From a virus (lineage: Duplodnaviria > Caudoviricetes): a stretch of DNA of 43,507 bases. The stretch lies in IMG/VR virus record IMGVR_UViG_3300037483_000513, positions 1 through 43,507 of that record. One strand, given 5' to 3'. A model generated the notes under the pieces. It did not search any database, was not told the origin of the DNA, and worked only from the letters and a program-made list of their open reading frames with translations. A program made the position numbers and the translations under genes. Below, piece by piece: positions 13,828-43,278 of the stretch; within the stretch, counting starts at the first letter, position 1, and every line of letters starts with the position of its first letter.

Positions 13828-14372
13828 CCGGCGTTCACTAGCCCGGACATCGCACGCGCAGTCTCCTCTATTGCTGCGGAGATGCGGGTGCGGGTTCCGG
13901 CCACGACCTCTTTGCATGTCGAGTCCGACGTGCCGAGGCGTCGGCCGATCTCTTTCCAGGGGACTCCGGCGGTCCGGTACACACCGATCATGTATCGGGT
14001 GTCTTCCGGGGGGACCAGGGCCGCTCGGGTCGGGCGGGGGACCGCCTGGTTTTCGGAGGCCCGCGGCATGCGTCGTTCGGTTTCGCGGCGCTGGCGGCTG
14101 GTGCGCCGCTTGTACGAGCTGCGTTCGTCTTCGCCCATCCCGCCCCACACGCCTTCGGGGATGTGGTTGTCCACGGCGAACCGGAGGCATTCGAGGCGGA
14201 CCGGGCACGAGAGGCAGATGCTGATGGCGGTCTCCATCTGCTGGACGGCGGGCCCGCTGGTCCCGATTGGCCACCACAGCTCGGGGTCGTACTGGAGGCA
14301 GTTCGCCTGGTTGCGCCAGTCGTCCACGGCGGCGTCCGGGGTGGCCGGTGCGTGCCGGTTGCTGCGGCTCAT
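13824..14372 (-). CDS. whiB: WhiB-family Fe-S transcription factor with extra C-terminal HTH
   Basis: WRNQANC...DPELWWP...ICLSCPVRLECL...GVWGG; C-terminal GVPWKEIGRRLGTSDSTCKEV. Confidence 0.9.
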   Translation of the reverse strand: MSRSNRHAPATPDAAVDDWRNQANCLQYDPELWWPIGTSGPAVQQMETAISICLSCPVRLECLRFAVDNHIPEGVWGGMGEDERSSYKRRTSRQRRETERRMPRASENQAVPRPTRAALVPPEDTRYMIGVYRTAGVPWKEIGRRLGTSDSTCKEVVAGTRTRISAAIEETARAMSGLVNAG

Positions 14373-15688
14373 CTGCTCGCCCCCAGGAGGGTGTCCAGGG
14401 ATGCCAGGGCGGCCGGTGGTGGCGCACCGATTTCCACGTTGGCTCTGGTGCCCCAGGTGGTGCGGTTGAGGGTGAGCAGGGACCAGACCCTGACCGGCAT
14501 GACCACCAGCAGGTTGAGGAGCCCGTACAGGGGTGCGGCGGCGAACCCGATCACGGCGTCGACCCACCACCGGTCACCGCGGTGCACCGCGAACGCGTGA
14601 ACGCTGCGGGCCCAGGCGCCGATGCAGATCCATTCCAGGTAGGACCCGAGCGACAGGGTGCCGGTGAGGATCGGGTCGACGACCAGGGCGACAAGGAGGC
14701 CGCTGCCGAACCCGGCAGTGGCGACCATCTCCAGCCCGGACAGCCACCACGCGCCCTGGCGTGGCGACAGATGCTGGAGGGCCCATAGGCTTTCGCGCCA
14801 GAACGAGCGACCCCACCGGGCTTGCTGGCGCAGGAAGTGACCGATCCGCTCGGGGACCACGGTCACCGCGACCGCGGTGCGGGCCAGAACGACCCGCCCG
14901 TGAGCCTGGTGGAGGTTCGTCAGGTGCCGGTCGTCGCCGGTGGTCTGCTTCTCGCCGAGGAACTCCTGCTCGAGGAATTCCTCGAGGTGCTGGTGGACGA
15001 CATGAGCGGACCAGAACGCGATCGCCCCGCTGACGCACAGGACCGACCCGAGGCGTGAATAGGCGGCCCGCTCACCCAGGAATGAGTTTACGTACCGAAG
15101 GTCGACCAGGCGGGTAAACAGGCTCTTCCGGTAGTTCGCGGCCAGCGCCACACCCGTGACGGCGACAACGTTTTCACCGGCGAAAGCCCGCACCCCCTGA
15201 CGCAACGCGTCGGGGTCGAGGATGACGTCGGAGTCGACACACAGGTACACGTCGACGTCCCGCATCGACCGGAATCCGGCGGCGAGGGCCTGGCGTTTCC
15301 CCCGGTTGGTGGGGGCGGTCAGCAGGGTGAAGGTTGCCGGCCAGCCCGACCAGGACTCGAGGACCGGGGTGCTGCTGGCGTCGTCGACGACGGTCACCCG
15401 GTACGGCCTCCGCGTTTGCGACCGGATCGACTCCAGGCACCGGCGGAGGGTTTCGGGGTCCTCGTTGTACACGGTGACGATGACCCCGACCCGCAGGTCG
15501 GGGGTCGCACCGTGCGTGGCAGGTGTGGGTAGCACCGACAGAAGGACTTTCGCGGCAAGGTAGGCCATCAGGGCGCCCCCGTAGAGCGCGATCGTCCCGG
15601 ACAGCCGCCAGGCGGCGAGAGCGGTGACAGCGGCGAACAGGGCCAGCGGGAGCCAGGTGGTCTGCTGGATTTTCACTCGGGGATTCAT
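14369..15688 (-). CDS. Processive GT2 glycosyltransferase, hyaluronan synthase/NodC-like
   Basis: VYNED, VVDDAS, NRGKRQAL, VDSD, CVSG, GDDRHLTN, QQARW motifs; N- and C-terminal TM helices; GGAGAGG RBS. Confidence 0.9.
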   Translation of the reverse strand: MNPRVKIQQTTWLPLALFAAVTALAAWRLSGTIALYGGALMAYLAAKVLLSVLPTPATHGATPDLRVGVIVTVYNEDPETLRRCLESIRSQTRRPYRVTVVDDASSTPVLESWSGWPATFTLLTAPTNRGKRQALAAGFRSMRDVDVYLCVDSDVILDPDALRQGVRAFAGENVVAVTGVALAANYRKSLFTRLVDLRYVNSFLGERAAYSRLGSVLCVSGAIAFWSAHVVHQHLEEFLEQEFLGEKQTTGDDRHLTNLHQAHGRVVLARTAVAVTVVPERIGHFLRQQARWGRSFWRESLWALQHLSPRQGAWWLSGLEMVATAGFGSGLLVALVVDPILTGTLSLGSYLEWICIGAWARSVHAFAVHRGDRWWVDAVIGFAAAPLYGLLNLLVVMPVRVWSLLTLNRTTWGTRANVEIGAPPPAALASLDTLLGASR

Positions 15689-16011
15689 GACCTCTCCGGC
15701 GGGCGGGGTTTGGGGTGCTCGGGCAGTGGTGGCCGTGCCGCCTGCTGTTCCTGCTGCGTCATCCGTCCGGCGTCCGCCGCCCATTGCGCGGCCGTGGCGT
15801 CGCGGTTCGCCTGGTCGATGACGGCCTGCTCGACCCCGGGCCCGGCGGCGGCCAGGGTCGCGTGGATTAGGGCGGCGGCCAGGTATAGGGCGGCGTCCGT
15901 GCGGCCGGCCTCCCGCAGCGCCGGGAAGTTGTCGGCCGCGCACCGGGCGATCTCCTCGACCGCCCGCTCGGTCAGGCGCTCCGCCTCCATGTAGTGACCC
16001 GCCCGGTTCAT
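15685..16011 (-). CDS. Hypothetical protein
   Basis: HYMEAERL...AALIHATLA; ATGA coupling. Confidence 0.65.
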   Translation of the reverse strand: MNRAGHYMEAERLTERAVEEIARCAADNFPALREAGRTDAALYLAAALIHATLAAAGPGVEQAVIDQANRDATAAQWAADAGRMTQQEQQAARPPLPEHPKPRPPERS

Positions 16012-23450: not shown

Positions 23451-23501
23451 ACGACGAGAAGGTCCACCCCACGCGAATCGTGGGGTGGACCTTCTCGTCG
23501 T
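23451..23501. terminator. Perfect 23-bp hairpin, probable bidirectional terminator
   Basis: ACGACGAGAAGGTCCACCCCACG-CGAAT-CGTGGGGTGGACCTTCTCGTCGT between convergent genes. Confidence 0.8.
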
Positions 23502-34389: not shown

Positions 34390-36723
34390 CTACACCGGAT
34401 CCCCGAGCCGGATCCGGGCAACCGTGGCCGCGAGCCGGGCTTCGCCCCGCTCGCCCCGGTCCCCGGACAAGGCCACCAGCAGCACCCCGACCGCCGATAG
34501 CGCAGCGGTGCCCGGGATCGCTGGTGTGCGGGCCAGGGTGAGCGTCCCTGTACCTCCCAGGGCGGCCACAGCGCCCGGGTTCGGTACCCCCGTCACGCTC
34601 AGACCACCACTACCGGCCGCTGCAGCCACACCCGGGACACGCGGTGCCATGAGCATGGACAGGGCCCCGATGCCGGCGAGCGCACCAGTCCCGACCGGAT
34701 GAGGGATGACCGTCCTCGATAGCGACCCAGCCCCGGCTAGGACAGCCGACCCTGAGAGCCCAATGACACCCGCGGCCGCGAGCTGACCAGTCCCGGACGA
34801 CCCGCTTACCGCACCGGACAACGCAGGCGTGCCAGCAGCGGCCAGGACACCAGCACCGGCCAGGATCGGGACGACGCCTGGGGTCGGAACACCTTCGGCG
34901 GTCGCCGTCCCAGCCCCGGCCAGAGTCGCCGACCCGGGAATCTGCGGGATCACCCCAACGGCCAAGACCCCCGCACCAGTCTGCGCTGCCTCCCCCGGAA
35001 GGGCTGGGGTCCGGGCCACCGACAGGACCCCAGCACCAGCCACAGCGACCGCGACGACCGGTTCGGGGACACCGGTCGCGGTCAGCGTCCCGGACCCGGT
35101 CCGCGCCGCCGTATCAAAAGCGACCTGACCACCAACCGCAGCCAGCACCCCTGCACCAGACAGAACCGCGGCAGCCTCGGTCGCCGGGGCGGTGGCCGCG
35201 CTCAACGTCCCCGCGCCGGCGAGGACAGCCGCCGCCCCGCCCACCGCGGGGGCACCTGTGACGCTCAGGGTTCCGGCGCCGGCCAGGGTCGCGGTACCGG
35301 GGATCGCTGGTGTGCGGGCCAGGGTGAGCGTCCCTGTACCTCCCAGGGCGGGCCCACCGGTCGGTTCTGGCACCCCGGAGGCGCTTAGGGCACCGGAGGC
35401 GGTGAACGACGGGGCGCCCGTCGGAGTCGGGACACCCGACGCGGTCAGGGTTCCCGCACCGGTCAGGGCCGCGGTCCCGGCGGCCGACTCGTCAAAAGTG
35501 TCGTTGAGGGTGAAGTCGTCGATCTCGAACGTGACAGATCCGACGTTGCCGGGACCGCACCGCAACCCGACGCGACCTGCCGATGTGTACGTGGTGTCGG
35601 TGGTTTCGTACAGCCACGCGGCCGGCTCATCAACCCCATCGAGCCACAGCTTGAATTTCACTTCGTCATCGACGACACCGAAACGGACCCGATACCAGGT
35701 GTTCACGGAGAAACTGAAACTCCCCGTCCCACCTGTCAGATCCGAACGGGAGTACGCCGTGCTCGTCCCGACATGCCAATTCCCGCCCTGCCGGTTCATC
35801 TCGCAGTAGTACCCGGCCGCTCCATCGATCGCATCGATGGAGTGGCGCATCCAGATCTGCGGATACACCTCCCCGGCCGGCCACCGGAACCGCATCGACC
35901 ACACCGCGTCCGTCGGGTTGGTGATGTTGACCTTCTTACAGGTCTGCCCGGAGTACCCACCGGCTGATCCGAGGGTGAACCGGCCCGCGTTGCCCTGGAT
36001 AGCCGTCGCCGACCCGGTGCTGAGAGATCCGTTCGCCCATGTCGAGGACAACGCATCACCGTCCGTGCCGGTGAAATCGTCCTCGGCCAGTGACGCCGGG
36101 ATATTCAGCAGGATCAGCGCCGCGTACCCGTTAGTTGAGGTGTCCGAGTACGTGATCGTCGCTGTCCTGGCCGCAGCAGCAGACGCCGTGAACGTCCCCA
36201 CGAACGCCGACGAAACCGTGTTCGCCTGCTCGTTGAAATAATGCTCCGTGATCGTCTCGCTGCCCGAGGACGTCACACTGGACACCGTCGTCGGCGTCGC
36301 CGTGGTCCTCTCGGTGGCCACCATCAGCACCTGCTGACCCACCGCAGGTGTCACCGACCCTGACGTGGTCGACGTCGAGGTGGCCACCCGCACATCCGCA
36401 CCGACAGATCCCGGGAACAGGGACCACTCATCGGTGTAGACGTGCCACACGTTGCAGGACTTCGACACCGTTGAGCTCAGGGTGATCGTGTCAGCCGCGA
36501 CCAGGCCGGTGGCCCGCCACACGGTGACCCGGTGATTCGTCGCAGCCCGGTCGTCGACCAGGACGAACGTTGCGCCGCCCTTCGCCGGGACGGGATCCCA
36601 ATCGGCGCCGTCCGCGGTGGCGAAGATGATCAACGCGGTCATGGTGGCCGTGACCGCGGCCGGTACCGTCAGGCTGATACCAGGCGGTGTCCCGACCCCG
36701 GGAGTTCCCGCGATGACCGTCAT
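34390..36723 (-). CDS. Large virion fibre protein (beta-sandwich/lectin domains plus about 22-aa GxGxL repeats)
   Basis: Thr/Ser-rich domains; WYRVRFGV...KLWLDGVDEPAAW; repeated LxGxGxLxxxGxP units. Confidence 0.75.
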   Translation of the reverse strand: MTVIAGTPGVGTPPGISLTVPAAVTATMTALIIFATADGADWDPVPAKGGATFVLVDDRAATNHRVTVWRATGLVAADTITLSSTVSKSCNVWHVYTDEWSLFPGSVGADVRVATSTSTTSGSVTPAVGQQVLMVATERTTATPTTVSSVTSSGSETITEHYFNEQANTVSSAFVGTFTASAAAARTATITYSDTSTNGYAALILLNIPASLAEDDFTGTDGDALSSTWANGSLSTGSATAIQGNAGRFTLGSAGGYSGQTCKKVNITNPTDAVWSMRFRWPAGEVYPQIWMRHSIDAIDGAAGYYCEMNRQGGNWHVGTSTAYSRSDLTGGTGSFSFSVNTWYRVRFGVVDDEVKFKLWLDGVDEPAAWLYETTDTTYTSAGRVGLRCGPGNVGSVTFEIDDFTLNDTFDESAAGTAALTGAGTLTASGVPTPTGAPSFTASGALSASGVPEPTGGPALGGTGTLTLARTPAIPGTATLAGAGTLSVTGAPAVGGAAAVLAGAGTLSAATAPATEAAAVLSGAGVLAAVGGQVAFDTAARTGSGTLTATGVPEPVVAVAVAGAGVLSVARTPALPGEAAQTGAGVLAVGVIPQIPGSATLAGAGTATAEGVPTPGVVPILAGAGVLAAAGTPALSGAVSGSSGTGQLAAAGVIGLSGSAVLAGAGSLSRTVIPHPVGTGALAGIGALSMLMAPRVPGVAAAAGSGGLSVTGVPNPGAVAALGGTGTLTLARTPAIPGTAALSAVGVLLVALSGDRGERGEARLAATVARIRLGDPV
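34514..35351. repeat. Identical 52-bp direct repeat (34514-34565 and 35300-35351)
   Basis: GGGATCGCTGGTGTGCGGGCCAGGGTGAGCGTCCCTGTACCTCCCAGGGCGG occurs twice, 786 bp apart, in frame. Confidence 0.9.
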
Positions 36724-36808
36724 TTCATGGCCTCCACACGCACCGCATCGCACGCACCACCAGTGGTGGTGAGCGTGTCCGATGCGAGCGAGAAGACCAC
36801 GGGCTACC

Positions 36809-37175: not shown

Positions 37176-37649
37176 TCAGACCGCGACTAGACGCGCGTCT
37201 GGATCGATAACGGCATAGCTTGCAACCCAATTCACCCGGGCCGTGGTACCGATCGCACCACCGCCGGTGACGCTCAATTTCAGATCGCCTGGATCCAGAG
37301 CGATCGGGACGGCCAAATTGAATCCATACGCGCGACCGGTAGCCGCCACCAGGGCCGAACCGGCGGCGGTGTTGAACCGTAGATACGTTCCAACACCAAG
37401 GTTCTGGACAGACGTTGCCGACGCAAGAACGACGTCGGCACCGCCGTCGTCGGGGTCCAGCGAGATAGCGAACGACAGCACCTCGTTGGGAATCGCGACC
37501 GTGACGCGGCCCAGAAACCCAGTGAGCACCACGGTTCCACCGTCGATGGTGAACAGGTCAACCGATGCTCCGGTGGCGGGCGGGAGAGCGGCGTCGCGGA
37601 GCACCGTTTTACCGAAGATCAGGTCACGTAAACGGGTCGCCTGCGACAT
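37176..37649 (-). CDS. Putative head decoration protein, paralogue 2
   Basis: 157 aa; colinear paralogue of the upstream gene. Confidence 0.65.
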   Translation of the reverse strand: MSQATRLRDLIFGKTVLRDAALPPATGASVDLFTIDGGTVVLTGFLGRVTVAIPNEVLSFAISLDPDDGGADVVLASATSVQNLGVGTYLRFNTAAGSALVAATGRAYGFNLAVPIALDPGDLKLSVTGGGAIGTTARVNWVASYAVIDPDARLVAV

Positions 37650-37664: not shown

Positions 37665-38138
37665 TCAGACCGCGGCGACGGTCGCGGCGCTACCGAGGGG
37701 CACCCACGTCAGGCCCCACTTAACACGTGCTGTGGTACCGATCGCCCCGCCACCGGCAACGTTCAGCTTGATGTCGCCGACGTCGAGGGCGATCGGGGTG
37801 GCCAACTTGATGCCGTAGGAAACATCGGTTGAGGTCACCAGAGCACCACCGGCGGCGGTATTCAGGGTGAACCAGTTGCCGACCCCGATGTTGTCGACGA
37901 TCAGCAGCGATGCGAGCGCCACATCACTGCCCCCATCATCCGGATCAAAAGCGAGATCGAAATCCAGTGACACGTTCGGGATCGCGACGGTCACATACCC
38001 GTAAAACCCGGTGAGGAGGATCGCCCCACCATCGATGCTGAACAGATCGGCCGAAACCCCGGTGGCCGGGGGGAGAGCAGCGGCACGCTCGACCAGTTTC
38101 CCGACCGCCGTGTCCCTGATCCGCGTGGTACGCGACAT
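37665..38138 (-). CDS. Putative head decoration protein, paralogue 1
   Basis: 157 aa directly after the capsid gene; AAAGGAAGG RBS. Confidence 0.65.
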   Translation of the reverse strand: MSRTTRIRDTAVGKLVERAAALPPATGVSADLFSIDGGAILLTGFYGYVTVAIPNVSLDFDLAFDPDDGGSDVALASLLIVDNIGVGNWFTLNTAAGGALVTSTDVSYGIKLATPIALDVGDIKLNVAGGGAIGTTARVKWGLTWVPLGSAATVAAV

Positions 38139-38182: not shown

Positions 38183-41143
38183 TTAGACGGCGGAGTAGGT
38201 GATTTCCCGAACACCGGCGAGGCGGGTGTTCGCGACCGCCTTGTACCCCCACACGGCCAGATCGATGTATTCGACCCGGTATTCGAAGTCCAGGCGCCGC
38301 GGTGGGGTCGCCCACCCGTGGACATCGCCCCGGTTGAACAGGTACGACGACCCGTCACCGCCGTTGCCGGCTTCCAGCGCCCACGAGGGCTTGGCCGGGA
38401 GCATCCCTACCATGACCTGCCCGAAGAAACCATCCGTGGACCCGGACGCGTTGGAGGGGGCGATGATCGGGTACAGCTTCCGGCCGACGTCATCGGTCGC
38501 GCCGGCCAGCGCGGTGAACAGGTTGCTGGCGACGTACAGGTCACGGAACCGGTTCCCGCCCCGGATGTACGCCAGCGCCGCGAGGTTCGCGGTGACGTCC
38601 GCGTCGAGGTCGGCATCGACCCCGTTCAATGCGATCGCGGTCGGGGTCAGAGCGTCGAGCATCGCGACAGCGGCGACCTCGAGCGCCTCGTAGTAGGCGC
38701 GGACGATCTCACGCCACAGGATCGTGGAGAACTGCGGGTTTCCGCCCTGGTCCCACACCTCGCGGGTGATCTCGACCCGCCCCGAGGTCGCGGTCGGGGT
38801 GATGGTCTGCCCGGTCGTGGTGAACACACCCGGGGTCGGGGCGGTGGCCTCGACATGGTCGGCGACCAGGCCGGACGCGCTGTTGAACTTCGGCAGCGTG
38901 AACGGTGTGCTGTCGGAGATCGTGCCCTTCTGGATCGCCAACCAGATCGGATACACAAATTCGAGGTTGTCGACGTACAGATCTGGGCGCTGGATGGTCG
39001 GGTTCAGCTCGTTGACGTCGGCCTGGTCGATATCGAACGCGACGCCCATGAACTTCTCGAGACGCTGCGTCGCCGCACCGTCCTTGTTCCGCATCGCGTT
39101 GATGATGTCCGTGCTGAAATCGTGCTCGCCCTTGGCGCCGTCGAATCGATACGGCAGGGGCTCTTTCACCTCGACGTGTGCGCCGCCGGGCGCGGCCGGG
39201 ATGACCTTCGGGCCCGCCCGAAGCGGCGGCTCGGCCTCCAGGTTGAGCGCCGGGGCCGGGGCCGGGGCCGGAGCGGGAGCAGGCGGGGCCGGCTGCGCTG
39301 CCACCATCGCGGCGGCGATCGCGGCGATGGTGTCCGCCGACAGGTTCAGAGGGGCGGCGGGCGGTGCCGCACACGGCGGTGCGCCCTCGGCGTGGGTGTG
39401 ACCGCAGATAGTGCACGGCATGGTGAGTTTCCCTTCATCTGCTGCTGCTGCAACGGAACTGACCCGCGCGTCGTCGAATGACGGGAACGGGAGAATCGAG
39501 ATCTCGGCCAACGGCGCCGAGACTGCGTGGTGCACACCGGCTCGAGCGGCGAACGTCGCCTCATTGGTGAGCCCGATGGACAACCCATCGAGTACGCCGT
39601 CGTCCGCGAGCTCCAGCACCTTGTCACCGTCGGCACCGCGAGCGACCTTGAAGCGCGCCCAGAGGCCTTCGGGGGTGTCTTGCAGTTCGATGGCCTGCCC
39701 AACGGCCTGCTTGCGGTCGTGGTCGCGTAGAAGCTTGACCCGACCGACCTGACCGAACTTCAGTGACCCTTTCGAGAACTGGTACTTCCGACCGCCTTTC
39801 GACGTGGTCACCCCGTAGGGGACGGCCAAGCCGAAGATCTCCCGCTTCGCGGTGTCGACCTCGAACGCCAGGCGGCCCTCGTCGGTGTCGAACCCGAAGA
39901 ATGCGTCGTCAGCGTCGAACGTGGGACCACCGATCGCGCGTGCAGCCAAGGTGCCCTCCTGAGTGGGTGAAGGCACCGCTTTCAACGATGCCGGGGGTGG
40001 TGCGGGAGCCTCATTCGGGGGCAATTCCTCACGCTTCTGCACCGTGTCGAGGCTGTAGAGGCCGAGCGCGACCCCCGCCGTGTACGTTTCGACCCGGGTT
40101 TTCTCGTCCGCACGGACCAATCCGCCGAGATCGAAGCGGGCCATGAACCCCTCAGCGGACACATCACCCATGCTCAACCTGTCCTGGATCGCCGAAATAT
40201 AAGGTGCGAGCGTGTAATTGACGAGTTCCTGCTGCTTCTGCACCGCGTTCAAGTACGTGCGGGACGTGGTGGACACCTCAAGGTCTTCCGCGCTGATCCC
40301 GACCAAGCGGGCGATGTCACGGACCGCGCCCTCACGTGACTCCACCAACTGCAGGCTCGCGGGATCCCACTGCAGCGGGTTGAACGTCACCGACCCGGAC
40401 ACGTACGCGGTCGCCCGAGCGCGGCGCTTGGCCTCCCACCCGTCCAGGAACTCCTCGATCTCCTCGCCCTGCAGGATGTCGTCGGAGTCGGCGCCCTCCA
40501 TCGGGGTGAACACACCCGACGGCATCGGGCTCTCGGCATACCGGGCGGCGGCGGCGTCCAGGCGCAGCAGCGTGCGGATTGCCCGGGCGCCGGCCACCAG
40601 CAGCGGGTCGCACGGTGACCAGAACCGGATCAGGTCCTCGTCCTTCACGTACTCCCACGCGGTGCCCTGGGCGCTGCCGTCACGGCGGACGTACACCTTC
40701 TGCTCGTCCCGCACATCCACGCTGCGGGCGTCGAGGCGGCGGACCTTTACCGGCCACCCATCGCCGTCCCGCTCGACCACCCGCCAGAACGCGCGGGCCT
40801 CGAACAGCAGATCGTCCAGGGTCATCGTCATCGTGACCGACCGAGGTACCGCTTCCTCGGGCTGGGCAAGCAACGCGTTCGGTGACGCCTCGAACGACGG
40901 GCTCAGGTAGTTCATCGGCAACGACCCGATCGAGCCGGCCACGATGTCGCGGGCCCGTTTCACCGCGGCGACCTGGATCGCCTCGCTGCGGTTCAGCCGG
41001 GCGACCGGGCCGATCGTCGACTCGTACGCAGGTAGCCCGAAGATCTCCGGGGGCACGCTCGAGGAATCGATCACGAACTGCGGACCGGCATCGGTGGTGA
41101 CCGCGACGTCGCGGGTGAACCGCAGCCGATCCCAGAAACCCAT
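38183..41143 (-). CDS. Portal-prohead protease-major capsid fusion polyprotein
   Basis: Residues 1-398 HK97 portal; 399-574 S78 protease (GLAVPYG, LLRDHD, GLSIG, EISILPFPSF); 575-986 HK97-fold capsid; no stop codons between modules. Confidence 0.88.
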   Translation of the reverse strand: MGFWDRLRFTRDVAVTTDAGPQFVIDSSSVPPEIFGLPAYESTIGPVARLNRSEAIQVAAVKRARDIVAGSIGSLPMNYLSPSFEASPNALLAQPEEAVPRSVTMTMTLDDLLFEARAFWRVVERDGDGWPVKVRRLDARSVDVRDEQKVYVRRDGSAQGTAWEYVKDEDLIRFWSPCDPLLVAGARAIRTLLRLDAAAARYAESPMPSGVFTPMEGADSDDILQGEEIEEFLDGWEAKRRARATAYVSGSVTFNPLQWDPASLQLVESREGAVRDIARLVGISAEDLEVSTTSRTYLNAVQKQQELVNYTLAPYISAIQDRLSMGDVSAEGFMARFDLGGLVRADEKTRVETYTAGVALGLYSLDTVQKREELPPNEAPAPPPASLKAVPSPTQEGTLAARAIGGPTFDADDAFFGFDTDEGRLAFEVDTAKREIFGLAVPYGVTTSKGGRKYQFSKGSLKFGQVGRVKLLRDHDRKQAVGQAIELQDTPEGLWARFKVARGADGDKVLELADDGVLDGLSIGLTNEATFAARAGVHHAVSAPLAEISILPFPSFDDARVSSVAAAADEGKLTMPCTICGHTHAEGAPPCAAPPAAPLNLSADTIAAIAAAMVAAQPAPPAPAPAPAPAPALNLEAEPPLRAGPKVIPAAPGGAHVEVKEPLPYRFDGAKGEHDFSTDIINAMRNKDGAATQRLEKFMGVAFDIDQADVNELNPTIQRPDLYVDNLEFVYPIWLAIQKGTISDSTPFTLPKFNSASGLVADHVEATAPTPGVFTTTGQTITPTATSGRVEITREVWDQGGNPQFSTILWREIVRAYYEALEVAAVAMLDALTPTAIALNGVDADLDADVTANLAALAYIRGGNRFRDLYVASNLFTALAGATDDVGRKLYPIIAPSNASGSTDGFFGQVMVGMLPAKPSWALEAGNGGDGSSYLFNRGDVHGWATPPRRLDFEYRVEYIDLAVWGYKAVANTRLAGVREITYSAV

Positions 41144-41183
41144 ACCCGCATGCTACGGCCCAGTTTGTAGGAAACCTACAAAG

Positions 41184-42800
41184 TCAAGCCGTCCTTGCCA
41201 CATGGACCTGCGGTTTCCCTAGACCTCTTGGCAGAGTCCTACAAAGATGCACCGCACCAGCGAGCGCATAGGCGGCGTCCACGGACGGCCCCCCCAGCCG
41301 GGTGAACCTCCACTTATCGCCCTGCGGCAGCTTCCCGGCCCCGGCCAACTGCGCGGTCAGCAATGGGTCACCGTTATGGACAATGCGGCGGCTGATGATC
41401 TGCTGCGCCAGGCCGAGGCACACCGCCGGAGCATCCTCACCGGTCAATGCGGTGGCTTTCTTGTCGTTCTTCAGGTCGGCCGCGAGCGCTGCCGCCGGGC
41501 CGCCGGGGAACCAGCCGAACGCCCGAGGTTTGATGCTCGCCCGCCATACCGGGATCGCCGCCCTGGCCTCCTGGACGGCGTTCGGGCCTGACCAGGAGTC
41601 GACGACCGCGGCCTGGACGCGCCCATCCGACAGCACGGCGGCACCGACCAGCGTGACGTGATTCCCGCCCGGGTCGACGTCCACACACAACGCGACCTTG
41701 CCCCGAAGCGACTCCATCGTCGCTGCCTCATCAAGGCCTCCCGCCCACGCATCCATGTCGATCGCGACGTCGAGCACGTCAACGCGCTGGCATAAGACCT
41801 CGGTCCGATACACCGCGGGCTCGTCGGTCCGCCGGTCGGAGGCGATCGTGGCCTCGCTGATCGTGTACCCCAGCGCCGGGTTCGCCTGAGCGATCTCGTC
41901 GATGTCGTCGAGCGCACACTTGTCCTCCGCGCTCCACTCGAACAGCCCCAGGGAATCATCACCGAGCGCGAGCTGCTCCGCGGCCTCATCCGGGTCGGTG
42001 TCCGCCTCGACCTGGACCTCGAGGCCGAGGCCGGTCATCGCAGCGGCCCGCAGGTGATTGAGAACGACGCTGGTGCGGTCACCCTGGTTGGTAATCGCCC
42101 ATTTCTGGCCGTCCGGGCGGGCATTCGTGGTCTTCGACGAGGCCGACCAGGCGTCCCATGTGGCATGTTCGCGCAGTTCATCGAGGATCAGCAGGTCAAC
42201 CGACAGCGACCGGCCACCCTTCCGGTTGGCCGCAGCGGTCTTGTATCGCGCCTTGTTCAGCGCGGTGAGCGTCGTCGAGCTGTTCTCCCGACGGACCGCA
42301 GCGCCCCGGCCCTCGAATTTGAACTCACCCGCGAGCGCTTCGGTGTCCTCTGCGAGGCTGACGCACTTCTCCCATGCCTCTTTCGCCAGGTCGACCGTCG
42401 TCGAGGTGCCGAGCACGAGCTTCGCGTCGTCGCAGAGCATCCGCCACAACGCCAGCACCGACAATGCTGTGGTCTTCCCGTTCTGGCGCGCCACCAAGAC
42501 CAACACGGTCCGGAACCGGTAGATGCCGAAGCAGTCGAGCTCCAGGGCGTGGATGAAAAGCCATCGCTGCCACGGCAATAGCGGCACACCGCATACGTCG
42601 TGGGCGAACTCGACGACCTCGAAGCCCTTGCTGGTCTCCGGTGTCAGGGCGCACCCGCACCCACACGGGCCGGGCTCCCCAGTGACCGCCGGGGGCGTGA
42701 AAATCCGGGGCGTCGTCGATCCCAGGCGGCTGCTACGCGCCCTGGGCAGCGCGGCGAGCGCGGATCCTGGCGAGGGCTGCAGCACCCGAACCACCTCCAT
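41184..42800 (-). CDS. terL: Terminase large subunit (start uncertain)
   Basis: LLPWQ, VARQNGKT Walker A, LILDELREH Walker B, ANPALG, VDAAYA nuclease motif. Confidence 0.92.
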   Translation of the reverse strand: MEVVRVLQPSPGSALAALPRARSSRLGSTTPRIFTPPAVTGEPGPCGCGCALTPETSKGFEVVEFAHDVCGVPLLPWQRWLFIHALELDCFGIYRFRTVLVLVARQNGKTTALSVLALWRMLCDDAKLVLGTSTTVDLAKEAWEKCVSLAEDTEALAGEFKFEGRGAAVRRENSSTTLTALNKARYKTAAANRKGGRSLSVDLLILDELREHATWDAWSASSKTTNARPDGQKWAITNQGDRTSVVLNHLRAAAMTGLGLEVQVEADTDPDEAAEQLALGDDSLGLFEWSAEDKCALDDIDEIAQANPALGYTISEATIASDRRTDEPAVYRTEVLCQRVDVLDVAIDMDAWAGGLDEAATMESLRGKVALCVDVDPGGNHVTLVGAAVLSDGRVQAAVVDSWSGPNAVQEARAAIPVWRASIKPRAFGWFPGGPAAALAADLKNDKKATALTGEDAPAVCLGLAQQIISRRIVHNGDPLLTAQLAGAGKLPQGDKWRFTRLGGPSVDAAYALAGAVHLCRTLPRGLGKPQVHVARTA

Positions 42801-43278
42801 CCCCAGCCACCGCCCCGACGGCGGCCCCATCCGCACCAGTCTGCGCCGCAGCCGGTCGGCGACCACCCGGCGTCAACCCCAACTGCGCCATGACCGCCAG
42901 CAACTTCGGCGCGTCCTGCATCCGCCCCTCATCCACGCTCTTCGCCAGGATCCGCGCCAGATTCACCGCCGCCCCATCCCGCGGATCGATCTCAACAGAG
43001 GCCGACAGCGCCAGATTCAGGGCCTTAACCATCGTCGTTGGATCAGGATCACCCGAGGCGGCGGCCGAGCGCCCAGCCGGGCGCCGTGAGCGCGGCACGA
43101 CCGGCACGACCGCGGGCACCGGAACGACCGCGGGCGCACGGGCAAGGTCAGTCGGGACAGGAGCGGGAGCTGGTGATTCGGCGGGAACCGGAGCGGCCAG
43201 AAAATCCGAGGCGCCCCCAAAATCCTTGGGCCCAGACCACCCCTCGACCCAGCCGAACTCCTCACCGGCAACCATCAA
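42733..43278 (-). CDS. terS: Terminase small subunit
   Basis: Upstream of terL; DGAAVNLARILAKSVD...LLAVMAQLGLTP. Confidence 0.75.
   Translation of the reverse strand: MMVAGEEFGWVEGWSGPKDFGGASDFLAAPVPAESPAPAPVPTDLARAPAVVPVPAVVPVVPRSRRPAGRSAAASGDPDPTTMVKALNLALSASVEIDPRDGAAVNLARILAKSVDEGRMQDAPKLLAVMAQLGLTPGGRRPAAAQTGADGAAVGAVAGDGGGSGAAALARIRARRAAQGA

Follow-up and report, generated by a model that had tools for sequence, protein, structure and literature searches.

Nested head genes with an internal start, a co-terminal shorter product and self-processing are known from the C/Nu3 genes of phage lambda and from the protease/scaffold genes of herpesviruses, and Gifsy-2 has a tripartite capsid gene. 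To our knowledge none of these genes includes a portal, and the proteases of lambda and Gifsy-2 are of a different class from S78. The closest described systems are the protease-scaffold-capsid fusion genes of the Microbacterium EE, Arthrobacter AN/AX/FE, Gordonia CW/DM and RRH1 phages (PMC7302621, PMC5513430), and a scaffold-protease fusion in lambda has also been mentioned (PMC5513430). As in the window (the whole 43,507-base stretch of DNA analyzed here), these small actinophages have a protease fused to a scaffold and an HK97-fold capsid protein, which corresponds to residues 427-986 of the window's open reading frame (ORF), and their portal and protease are homologous to those of the window at about 27-33% identity. 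They differ in that their portal is a separate gene, with a 4-nt overlap in Atraxa, Stem and Maggie, whereas the portal of the window is in frame with the rest, and in that their genomes are 14-18 kb rather than 43,507 bases. The available portions of the accounts of these fusions mention no internal start (PMC7302621, PMC5513430).

The head module of HK97 has the same three folds in the same order, with the scaffold fused to the capsid protein. In HK97, however, there are three genes and the portal-scaffold contacts are non-covalent, while in the window portal and scaffold would be linked covalently up to the point of cleavage. The HK97 portal is thought to nucleate assembly through its scaffold contacts, which is stated as a hypothesis (PMC10275583). 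Portals fused to MuF or to enzymes have been described as well (PMC5513430, PMC7302621, PMC5512222). Like the window's protein these are portals with extra domains, but their partners are minor proteins or enzymes that pose no copy-number conflict, whereas the partners in the window are a protease and the shell protein. Nested protease/scaffold starts are not new in themselves. The same holds for protease-scaffold-capsid and portal-MuF fusions (PMC7302621, PMC5513430); for a portal in the same gene we found no such account. An earlier note on this DNA had remarked that no characterised triple fusion was known, and our search of open-access papers, with subscription papers and supplements outside its scope, agreed with it in finding no portal-protease-capsid gene; none was present in the available portions of PMC10690885, PMC5831693, PMC12494034, PMC5512222 and PMC3185693.

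Direct reading of the window confirmed an ORF of 986 codons, from 41143 to 38183 on the minus strand, free of internal stops. It lies between the terminase and the head-tail genes of a 43.5-kb phage contig of 67% GC that also carries tail, lysis, repressor, replication and recombination genes. The gene upstream, the ORF and its modules are:

41184..42866, minus strand: terminase large subunit, a separate gene upstream (phrog_9, E 2e-63)
38183..41143, minus strand: portal-protease-scaffold-capsid ORF, 986 aa, 105.8 kDa (frame, Pfam and PHROG matches)
39950..41143, minus strand: HK97-family portal module, residues 1-398, with a Pro-rich tail (PF04860, E 3e-33; fold match to 3KDR and 8FQL)
39440..39865, minus strand: S78/HK97-type prohead protease, residues 427-568, with H475 and S522 (PF04586)
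39035..39421, minus strand: scaffold/delta-like region, residues 575-703, with a variable Pro/Ala part, a conserved part at 661-702 and F703, a candidate cleavage site, at its end
38183..39034, minus strand: HK97-fold major capsid protein, residues 704-986, with a mass of 30.5 kDa if cleaved at F703 (PF25209; 1OHG)

A Pfam profile search placed the PF04860 portal at residues 60-370 (115.7 bits, cut-off 39.1), the PF04586 S78 protease at residues 436-568 (36.1 bits, cut-off 21) and the PF25209 capsid on residues 704-986 (39.1 bits, cut-off 27), while PHROG 2263, a major head protein, spans residues 428-986. The claim that portal, protease and capsid share one frame without a stop is therefore borne out, each of the three modules being matched by a profile. 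Two further models scored under their cut-offs, TIGR01537 on the portal module (69.6, cut-off 112) and the NCBIfam protease/capsid fusion NF045541 (25.1 bits, cut-off 525). The portal is assumed from its family to be a dodecamer at one vertex. Residues H475 and S522, which we take to be catalytic from their role in the S78 family, are conserved in 132/135 and 135/135 loci, respectively. An AlphaFold model gave confident modules with low confidence at residues 15-24, 386-424, 561-660 (in part) and 703-707; with a pTM of 0.46 it is uninformative on how the modules pack. Using Foldseek, the modelled portal matched 3KDR (E 5e-19) and the modelled capsid matched the HK97 head 1OHG (E 1e-10) and also Oxtober96 8ECO. 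A sequence search of the PDB with the scaffold-capsid part returned no match, and its profile version returned portals only.

A single long frame in one contig could reflect a sequencing error or a defective prophage remnant, and the fusion was found in no cultured phage: a tblastn search of 50,697 cultured phage records gave 254 matches, none of which covered 80% of the 986-aa protein, and the nearest cultured phages were actinophages of 14-17 kb in which the portal has a gene to itself. The only sequencing run listed with this DNA yielded a single contig (depth 50.6) with 0 differences from the window; these data are contigs rather than reads and, since the run may be the source of the window, not independent support. 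No RNA dataset was listed with this DNA, which is uninformative on expression. Homologues of full length are common, however, with 117 of the best 120 of 469 protein matches being at least 900 aa long, at about 39-84% identity among those 120. We fetched 196 loci, which with the window gave 197 sequences, and of these 134 were triple-fused, 31 were split and 32 were partial. Fused loci were present in viral contigs, in metagenomes and in the genomes of isolates; Kribbella deserti and Micromonospora avicenniae are examples of isolates in which the frame is likewise unbroken. The named hosts are almost all actinobacteria. Because independent assemblies carry the fusion, and the catalytic residues are conserved, error or decay is effectively refuted as an explanation, with a probability that we regard as negligible. 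As far as the sequences tell, the triple fusion is a family trait of more than 100 uncultured relatives and actinobacterial prophages.

For all further counts, 39 of the 197 sequences without a fully covered junction were left out, followed by 23 that were redundant at 85% identity. The remaining 135 loci consisted of 109 that were triple-fused, 22 with a separate portal and four with a separate capsid, so that no stop separates portal from protease in 113/135 loci, down to about 31% identity; the loci are kin, and these counts do not represent independent events. In the four loci with a separate capsid (L025, L036, L090 and L099) portal and protease are fused and the capsid occupies a separate frame that begins at the same junction. 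One or more of them may be assembly errors, and the separate frame of L090 may be an assembly frameshift. One split relative (L069:1929-4805) encodes a portal whose fusion partner, in place of the protease, is a 570-aa tail that contains an ADP-ribosyltransferase domain (PF03496, E 7e-12).

The junction between protease and scaffold carries a putative start:

39419..39436, minus strand: GAAGGG and ATG, internal start at residue 575, scaffold-capsid product of 43.5 kDa (104/109 fused loci)

Direct reading confirmed the GAAGGG (39436-39431), the 9-nt spacer and the ATG at 39421, as well as the reported Pro/Ala stretch, which lies downstream of the start. The Shine-Dalgarno sequence (SD) is weak in the window (-5.6), barely past the threshold of -5.5 kcal/mol used for scoring; a locus was counted when an in-frame start that passed it stood 3-10 codons downstream of the protease. 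Since eight in-frame codons of the ORF pass this threshold, a lone SD-led start is weak evidence. Across the family the start is conserved in 104/109 fused loci, with ATG in 90, compared to a background in windows of the same width of 6.9% in the domains and 4.4% in the distal linker; the start windows for both junctions were picked after the locus data had been seen. When codons at this site were redrawn synonymously in 60 trials, the start was retained in 67 of the 109 loci on average and in 78 at most, versus the 104 real ones, and off-frame scores were 1/109 in the +1 frame and 25/109 in the +2 frame. The start is also present in 20 of the 22 portal-split loci, and an SD and ATG were found just past the protease in cultured Atraxa, Stem, RRH1 and Maggie (four of five genes checked, first 300 codons); in the fifth, that of Emperor, none was seen over the same span. 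A conserved in-frame SD and start with a co-terminal product, the mark of a nested gene, is thus present at this junction as a sequence signal. We consider that the start at residue 575 is very probably used, and that most of the capsid protein would be made from it. The N-terminus of the predicted scaffold-capsid product (39421-39395, minus strand) reads CxxCGxxH, a possible metal site found in 49/121 homologues.

These data bear on whether the gene is instead a pure polyprotein, in which only the first start is used, each capsid subunit comes with a portal and a protease, and surplus portal and protease are degraded. Such a reading would account for the single frame, the intact protease and a candidate cut site at every boundary, and annotations of the cultured small actinophages give protease, scaffold and capsid as a single gene (PMC7302621). 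It leaves unexplained why the SD and ATG at the capsid junction are retained in more loci than the protein sequence explains, why four loci have the capsid in a separate frame from that junction (some perhaps through assembly error) and why codon use differs among modules of one ORF. Rare codons are less frequent in the capsid module than in the portal in 99/109 fused ORFs and preferred codons more frequent in 93/109, while the protease module exceeds the portal in preferred codons in only 30/109; the list of preferred codons is a high-GC prior chosen for the analysis, and the contrast is small in the window's ORF (0.832 vs 0.822). We therefore regard a pure polyprotein as quite improbable.

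A second putative start lies between portal and protease:

39947..39960, minus strand: AGGAGG and TTG, internal start at residue 399, protease-scaffold-capsid product of 62.1 kDa (43/109 fused loci)

Here too the reported elements were confirmed by direct reading, with AGGAGG (39960-39955), GCACC and TTG at 39949, and the Pro-rich stretch lies upstream of the SD. The site is unchanged in the relatives L001, L002 and L066. A 9-bp hairpin over this SD was considered as a control element and dropped, as it is absent from the same three relatives. In the family a protease start was scored in 43/109 fused loci in the chosen window, in 58 anywhere in the linker and in 66 at a loose threshold. The background in windows of the same width is 8-12%, and at a strict threshold of -8 kcal/mol the start was found in 30/109 loci versus about 2%; at the less strict threshold that gave the 43/109, or 39%, the best in-domain window reached 36%, and synonymous redraws gave up to 33/109. 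An equal number, 43/109, had no SD-led start in the first linker even at -4 kcal/mol, and in three fused loci this linker contains no start codon at all. The GxS motif is retained in all fused loci without a linker start. One large clade is mostly without a protease start and keeps the protease Ser motif in 66/66 loci. The simplest source of protease in this clade would be the long chain alone, an argument for the production and use of that chain.

The earlier note had proposed that three co-terminal products set the stoichiometry by start strength. As a rule for the family, with portal below protease below capsid, this is unlikely. All three signals exist in the window phage and in its closest relatives, L001, L002 and L066, and the start codons differ, the protease start being GTG or TTG in 30/43 loci and the capsid start ATG in 90/104, with the capsid start A-rich and less structured, and the protease start less accessible. 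The protease start is nevertheless absent from 51 to 66 of the 109 fused loci, and the protease module is no more codon-optimized than the portal, so that the proposal fits the lineage of the window and not the family. Its second element, start strength, stands only in part: the capsid-junction start is nearly universal, but SD alone cannot rank the starts, the SD of the window being stronger at the protease site, which has a TTG codon, than at the capsid site. In the window phage itself we think the protease start is probably used, if with some reserve.

The same junction may offer a clue to the origin of the fusion. Among the 20 split loci for which a start was scored, 15 have a portal stop that overlaps the protease start, by 1-5 nt, and the split-locus portal tails, such as QEATA followed by the stop, resemble QEGT in the window's ORF. 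The stop/start overlap at the same junction in split relatives suggests that the TTG at residue 399 is probably the former start of a protease gene. A small indel at such an overlap could have fused the frames as a tolerated accident, the protease trimming off the tail and the fusion having no role in assembly. The fused/split state changes at least nine times on the tree versus 20.7 times when shuffled (FastTree, midpoint root), and the proteases of Emperor and RRH1 carry other in-frame N-terminal extensions, both of which agree with an accident. Less easily reconciled with it are the fusion in 113/135 loci across so wide a range of identity, an extra conserved Phe segment described below and the large clade that couples the fusion with loss of the protease start. 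An accident of this kind is a real possibility, if somewhat short of an even chance; its mechanics are those of the explanation that we prefer, and the two differ only on benefit.

Upstream of the portal two features were found:

41150..41155, minus strand: TAGCAT, a -10-like box 6 nt before the ATG, with a putative leaderless start (TAnnnT in 60/99 fused loci)
41164..41182, no strand assigned: perfect inverted repeat of 8 bp, TTTGTAGG-TTT-CCTACAAA, downstream of the terminase stop and upstream of the -10 box

The portal ATG of the window has no SD (-1.5), and an SD precedes the portal start in 13/99 fused loci. A TAnnnT box precedes the portal start by 5-8 nt in 60/99 fused and 3/21 split loci, compared to a background of 2.4%, with portal starts picked by a heuristic. 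Boxes of this type have been read as marking leaderless genes in Actinobacteria (PMC3160421), and the portal start looks leaderless. A sigma-70 scan, which needs a -35 box, found no promoter before the long ORF. The inverted repeat, of which similar forms occur in L002, L038, L067 and L191, is a possible operator.

Two candidate cleavage sites lie in the N-terminal half of the long chain:

41075..41077, minus strand: F23, a conserved Phe after the N-terminal helix, candidate cleavage site (F in 109/114; pLDDT <50 at 15-24)
39917..39919, minus strand: F409 (PTF-DA), candidate portal/protease release site (Phe in the linker window in 92/109 fused loci)

Phe is conserved among homologues at F23 (109/114), F409 (111/121) and F703 (118/121). 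All three share the pattern [T/A/Q/R]-F-[D/A/S] and sit at module edges with pLDDT <50, although this loose pattern also fits F556 and F667, which are in folded or conserved parts. In the first linker a 12-residue window contains Phe in 92/109 fused loci versus 1/109 in the adjacent window, and a Phe of the F409 type was found in 1/22 split loci. Being nearly confined to fused forms, the F409 segment is a candidate self-cleavage site; the Phe is missing from split loci partly by construction, since the split protease gene starts downstream of it. The internal protease start lies about 13 codons further upstream in fused than in split loci (median -35 vs -22), which leaves room for the F409 segment. 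The position of these Phe residues at edges where cuts are needed predicts cleavage after Phe, and we lean slightly towards the view that the protease cuts at this motif. A programmed frameshift or pause in the linker that frees the portal, with little long chain made, would avoid tethered portals. Slippery heptamers, however, occur in only 1/109 first linkers and 1/109 second linkers, giving no frameshift signal, and on this reading little protease would be made in loci that lack a protease start. We judge this very unlikely.

The explanation that we favor, with reasonable confidence, is one of nested starts on a single unbroken frame followed by self-cleavage after Phe residues. The putatively leaderless first ATG would give a few full-length chains of 106 kDa, the SD and ATG at residue 575 many scaffold-capsid chains of 43.5 kDa and with them most of the capsid, and in the window phage the TTG at residue 399 some protease-scaffold-capsid chains of 62 kDa. 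In relatives without a protease start, the portal chain would be the sole source of protease. The encoded protease would then free the portal, the scaffold and a 30.5-kDa capsid protein after the conserved Phe residues. That the long chain is made and processed is likely. The idea that every portal is made tethered holds if the frame is read as written, in which case the long product would be the only source of portal.

Whether the tether helps to nucleate the head is a more tentative matter. In known phages the C-terminus of the portal points towards the inside of the head, as does the scaffold, which makes the tether geometrically plausible. Engineered C-terminal fusions of the T4 portal have been built into particles (PMC9026906). 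Each portal subunit of a self-processing chain would arrive with a protease and a capsid subunit attached, and the ring would seed the shell. Where a lineage has no protease start, the whole of the protease, about 12 copies, would enter the head tethered to the portal and would cut after Phe to release portal, scaffold and capsid. We offer this arrangement as a possibility that falls short of being probable, and the same applies to nucleation aided by the tether, about as likely as which is a tolerated fusion without benefit.

The placement of one portal per shell and the entry of the protease are unsettled points of tailed-phage assembly. Portal nucleation becomes directly testable with a natural covalent chain of portal, protease and capsid that also has split and start-less variants, and prophages in culture collections and cultured phages of the split form are ready systems. 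Database names for the fused proteins are 'portal' or 'prohead protease' only, so that the capsid gene is missed in annotation.

Several other features of the window and its relatives were observed. The window exceeds many related contigs about 2.5-fold in length, and L002 and L066 join sequence from both of its ends, suggesting that the window may represent a complete genome opened from a circle; no terminal repeat was found in the window, and scans of 39, 30 and 18 ORFs gave no credible integrase match. The protease-capsid genes of Emperor (gp10, L197:4063-4422) and RRH1 (orf7, L200:2440-2742) follow lysin genes and open with about 100-120 hydrophobic residues that had no family match and may come from an in-frame fusion with the gene of a membrane protein; Emperor gp10 has an SD and ATG at codon 121. 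A 787-aa ORF among the head-tail genes (34390-36753, minus strand) contains internal DNA repeats about 180-300 nt apart and had no family match, and a glycosyltransferase is encoded at 14369-15943. Between convergent gene blocks there is a perfect 23-bp inverted repeat with a 5-nt loop (23451-23501), possibly a terminator. Directly after the capsid lie two adjacent 157-aa paralogues that are 60% identical (37665-38138 and 37176-37649, minus strand) and had no Pfam or PHROG match; they are possibly decoration proteins, and the gene is apparently present in one copy in L001, L002 and L066.
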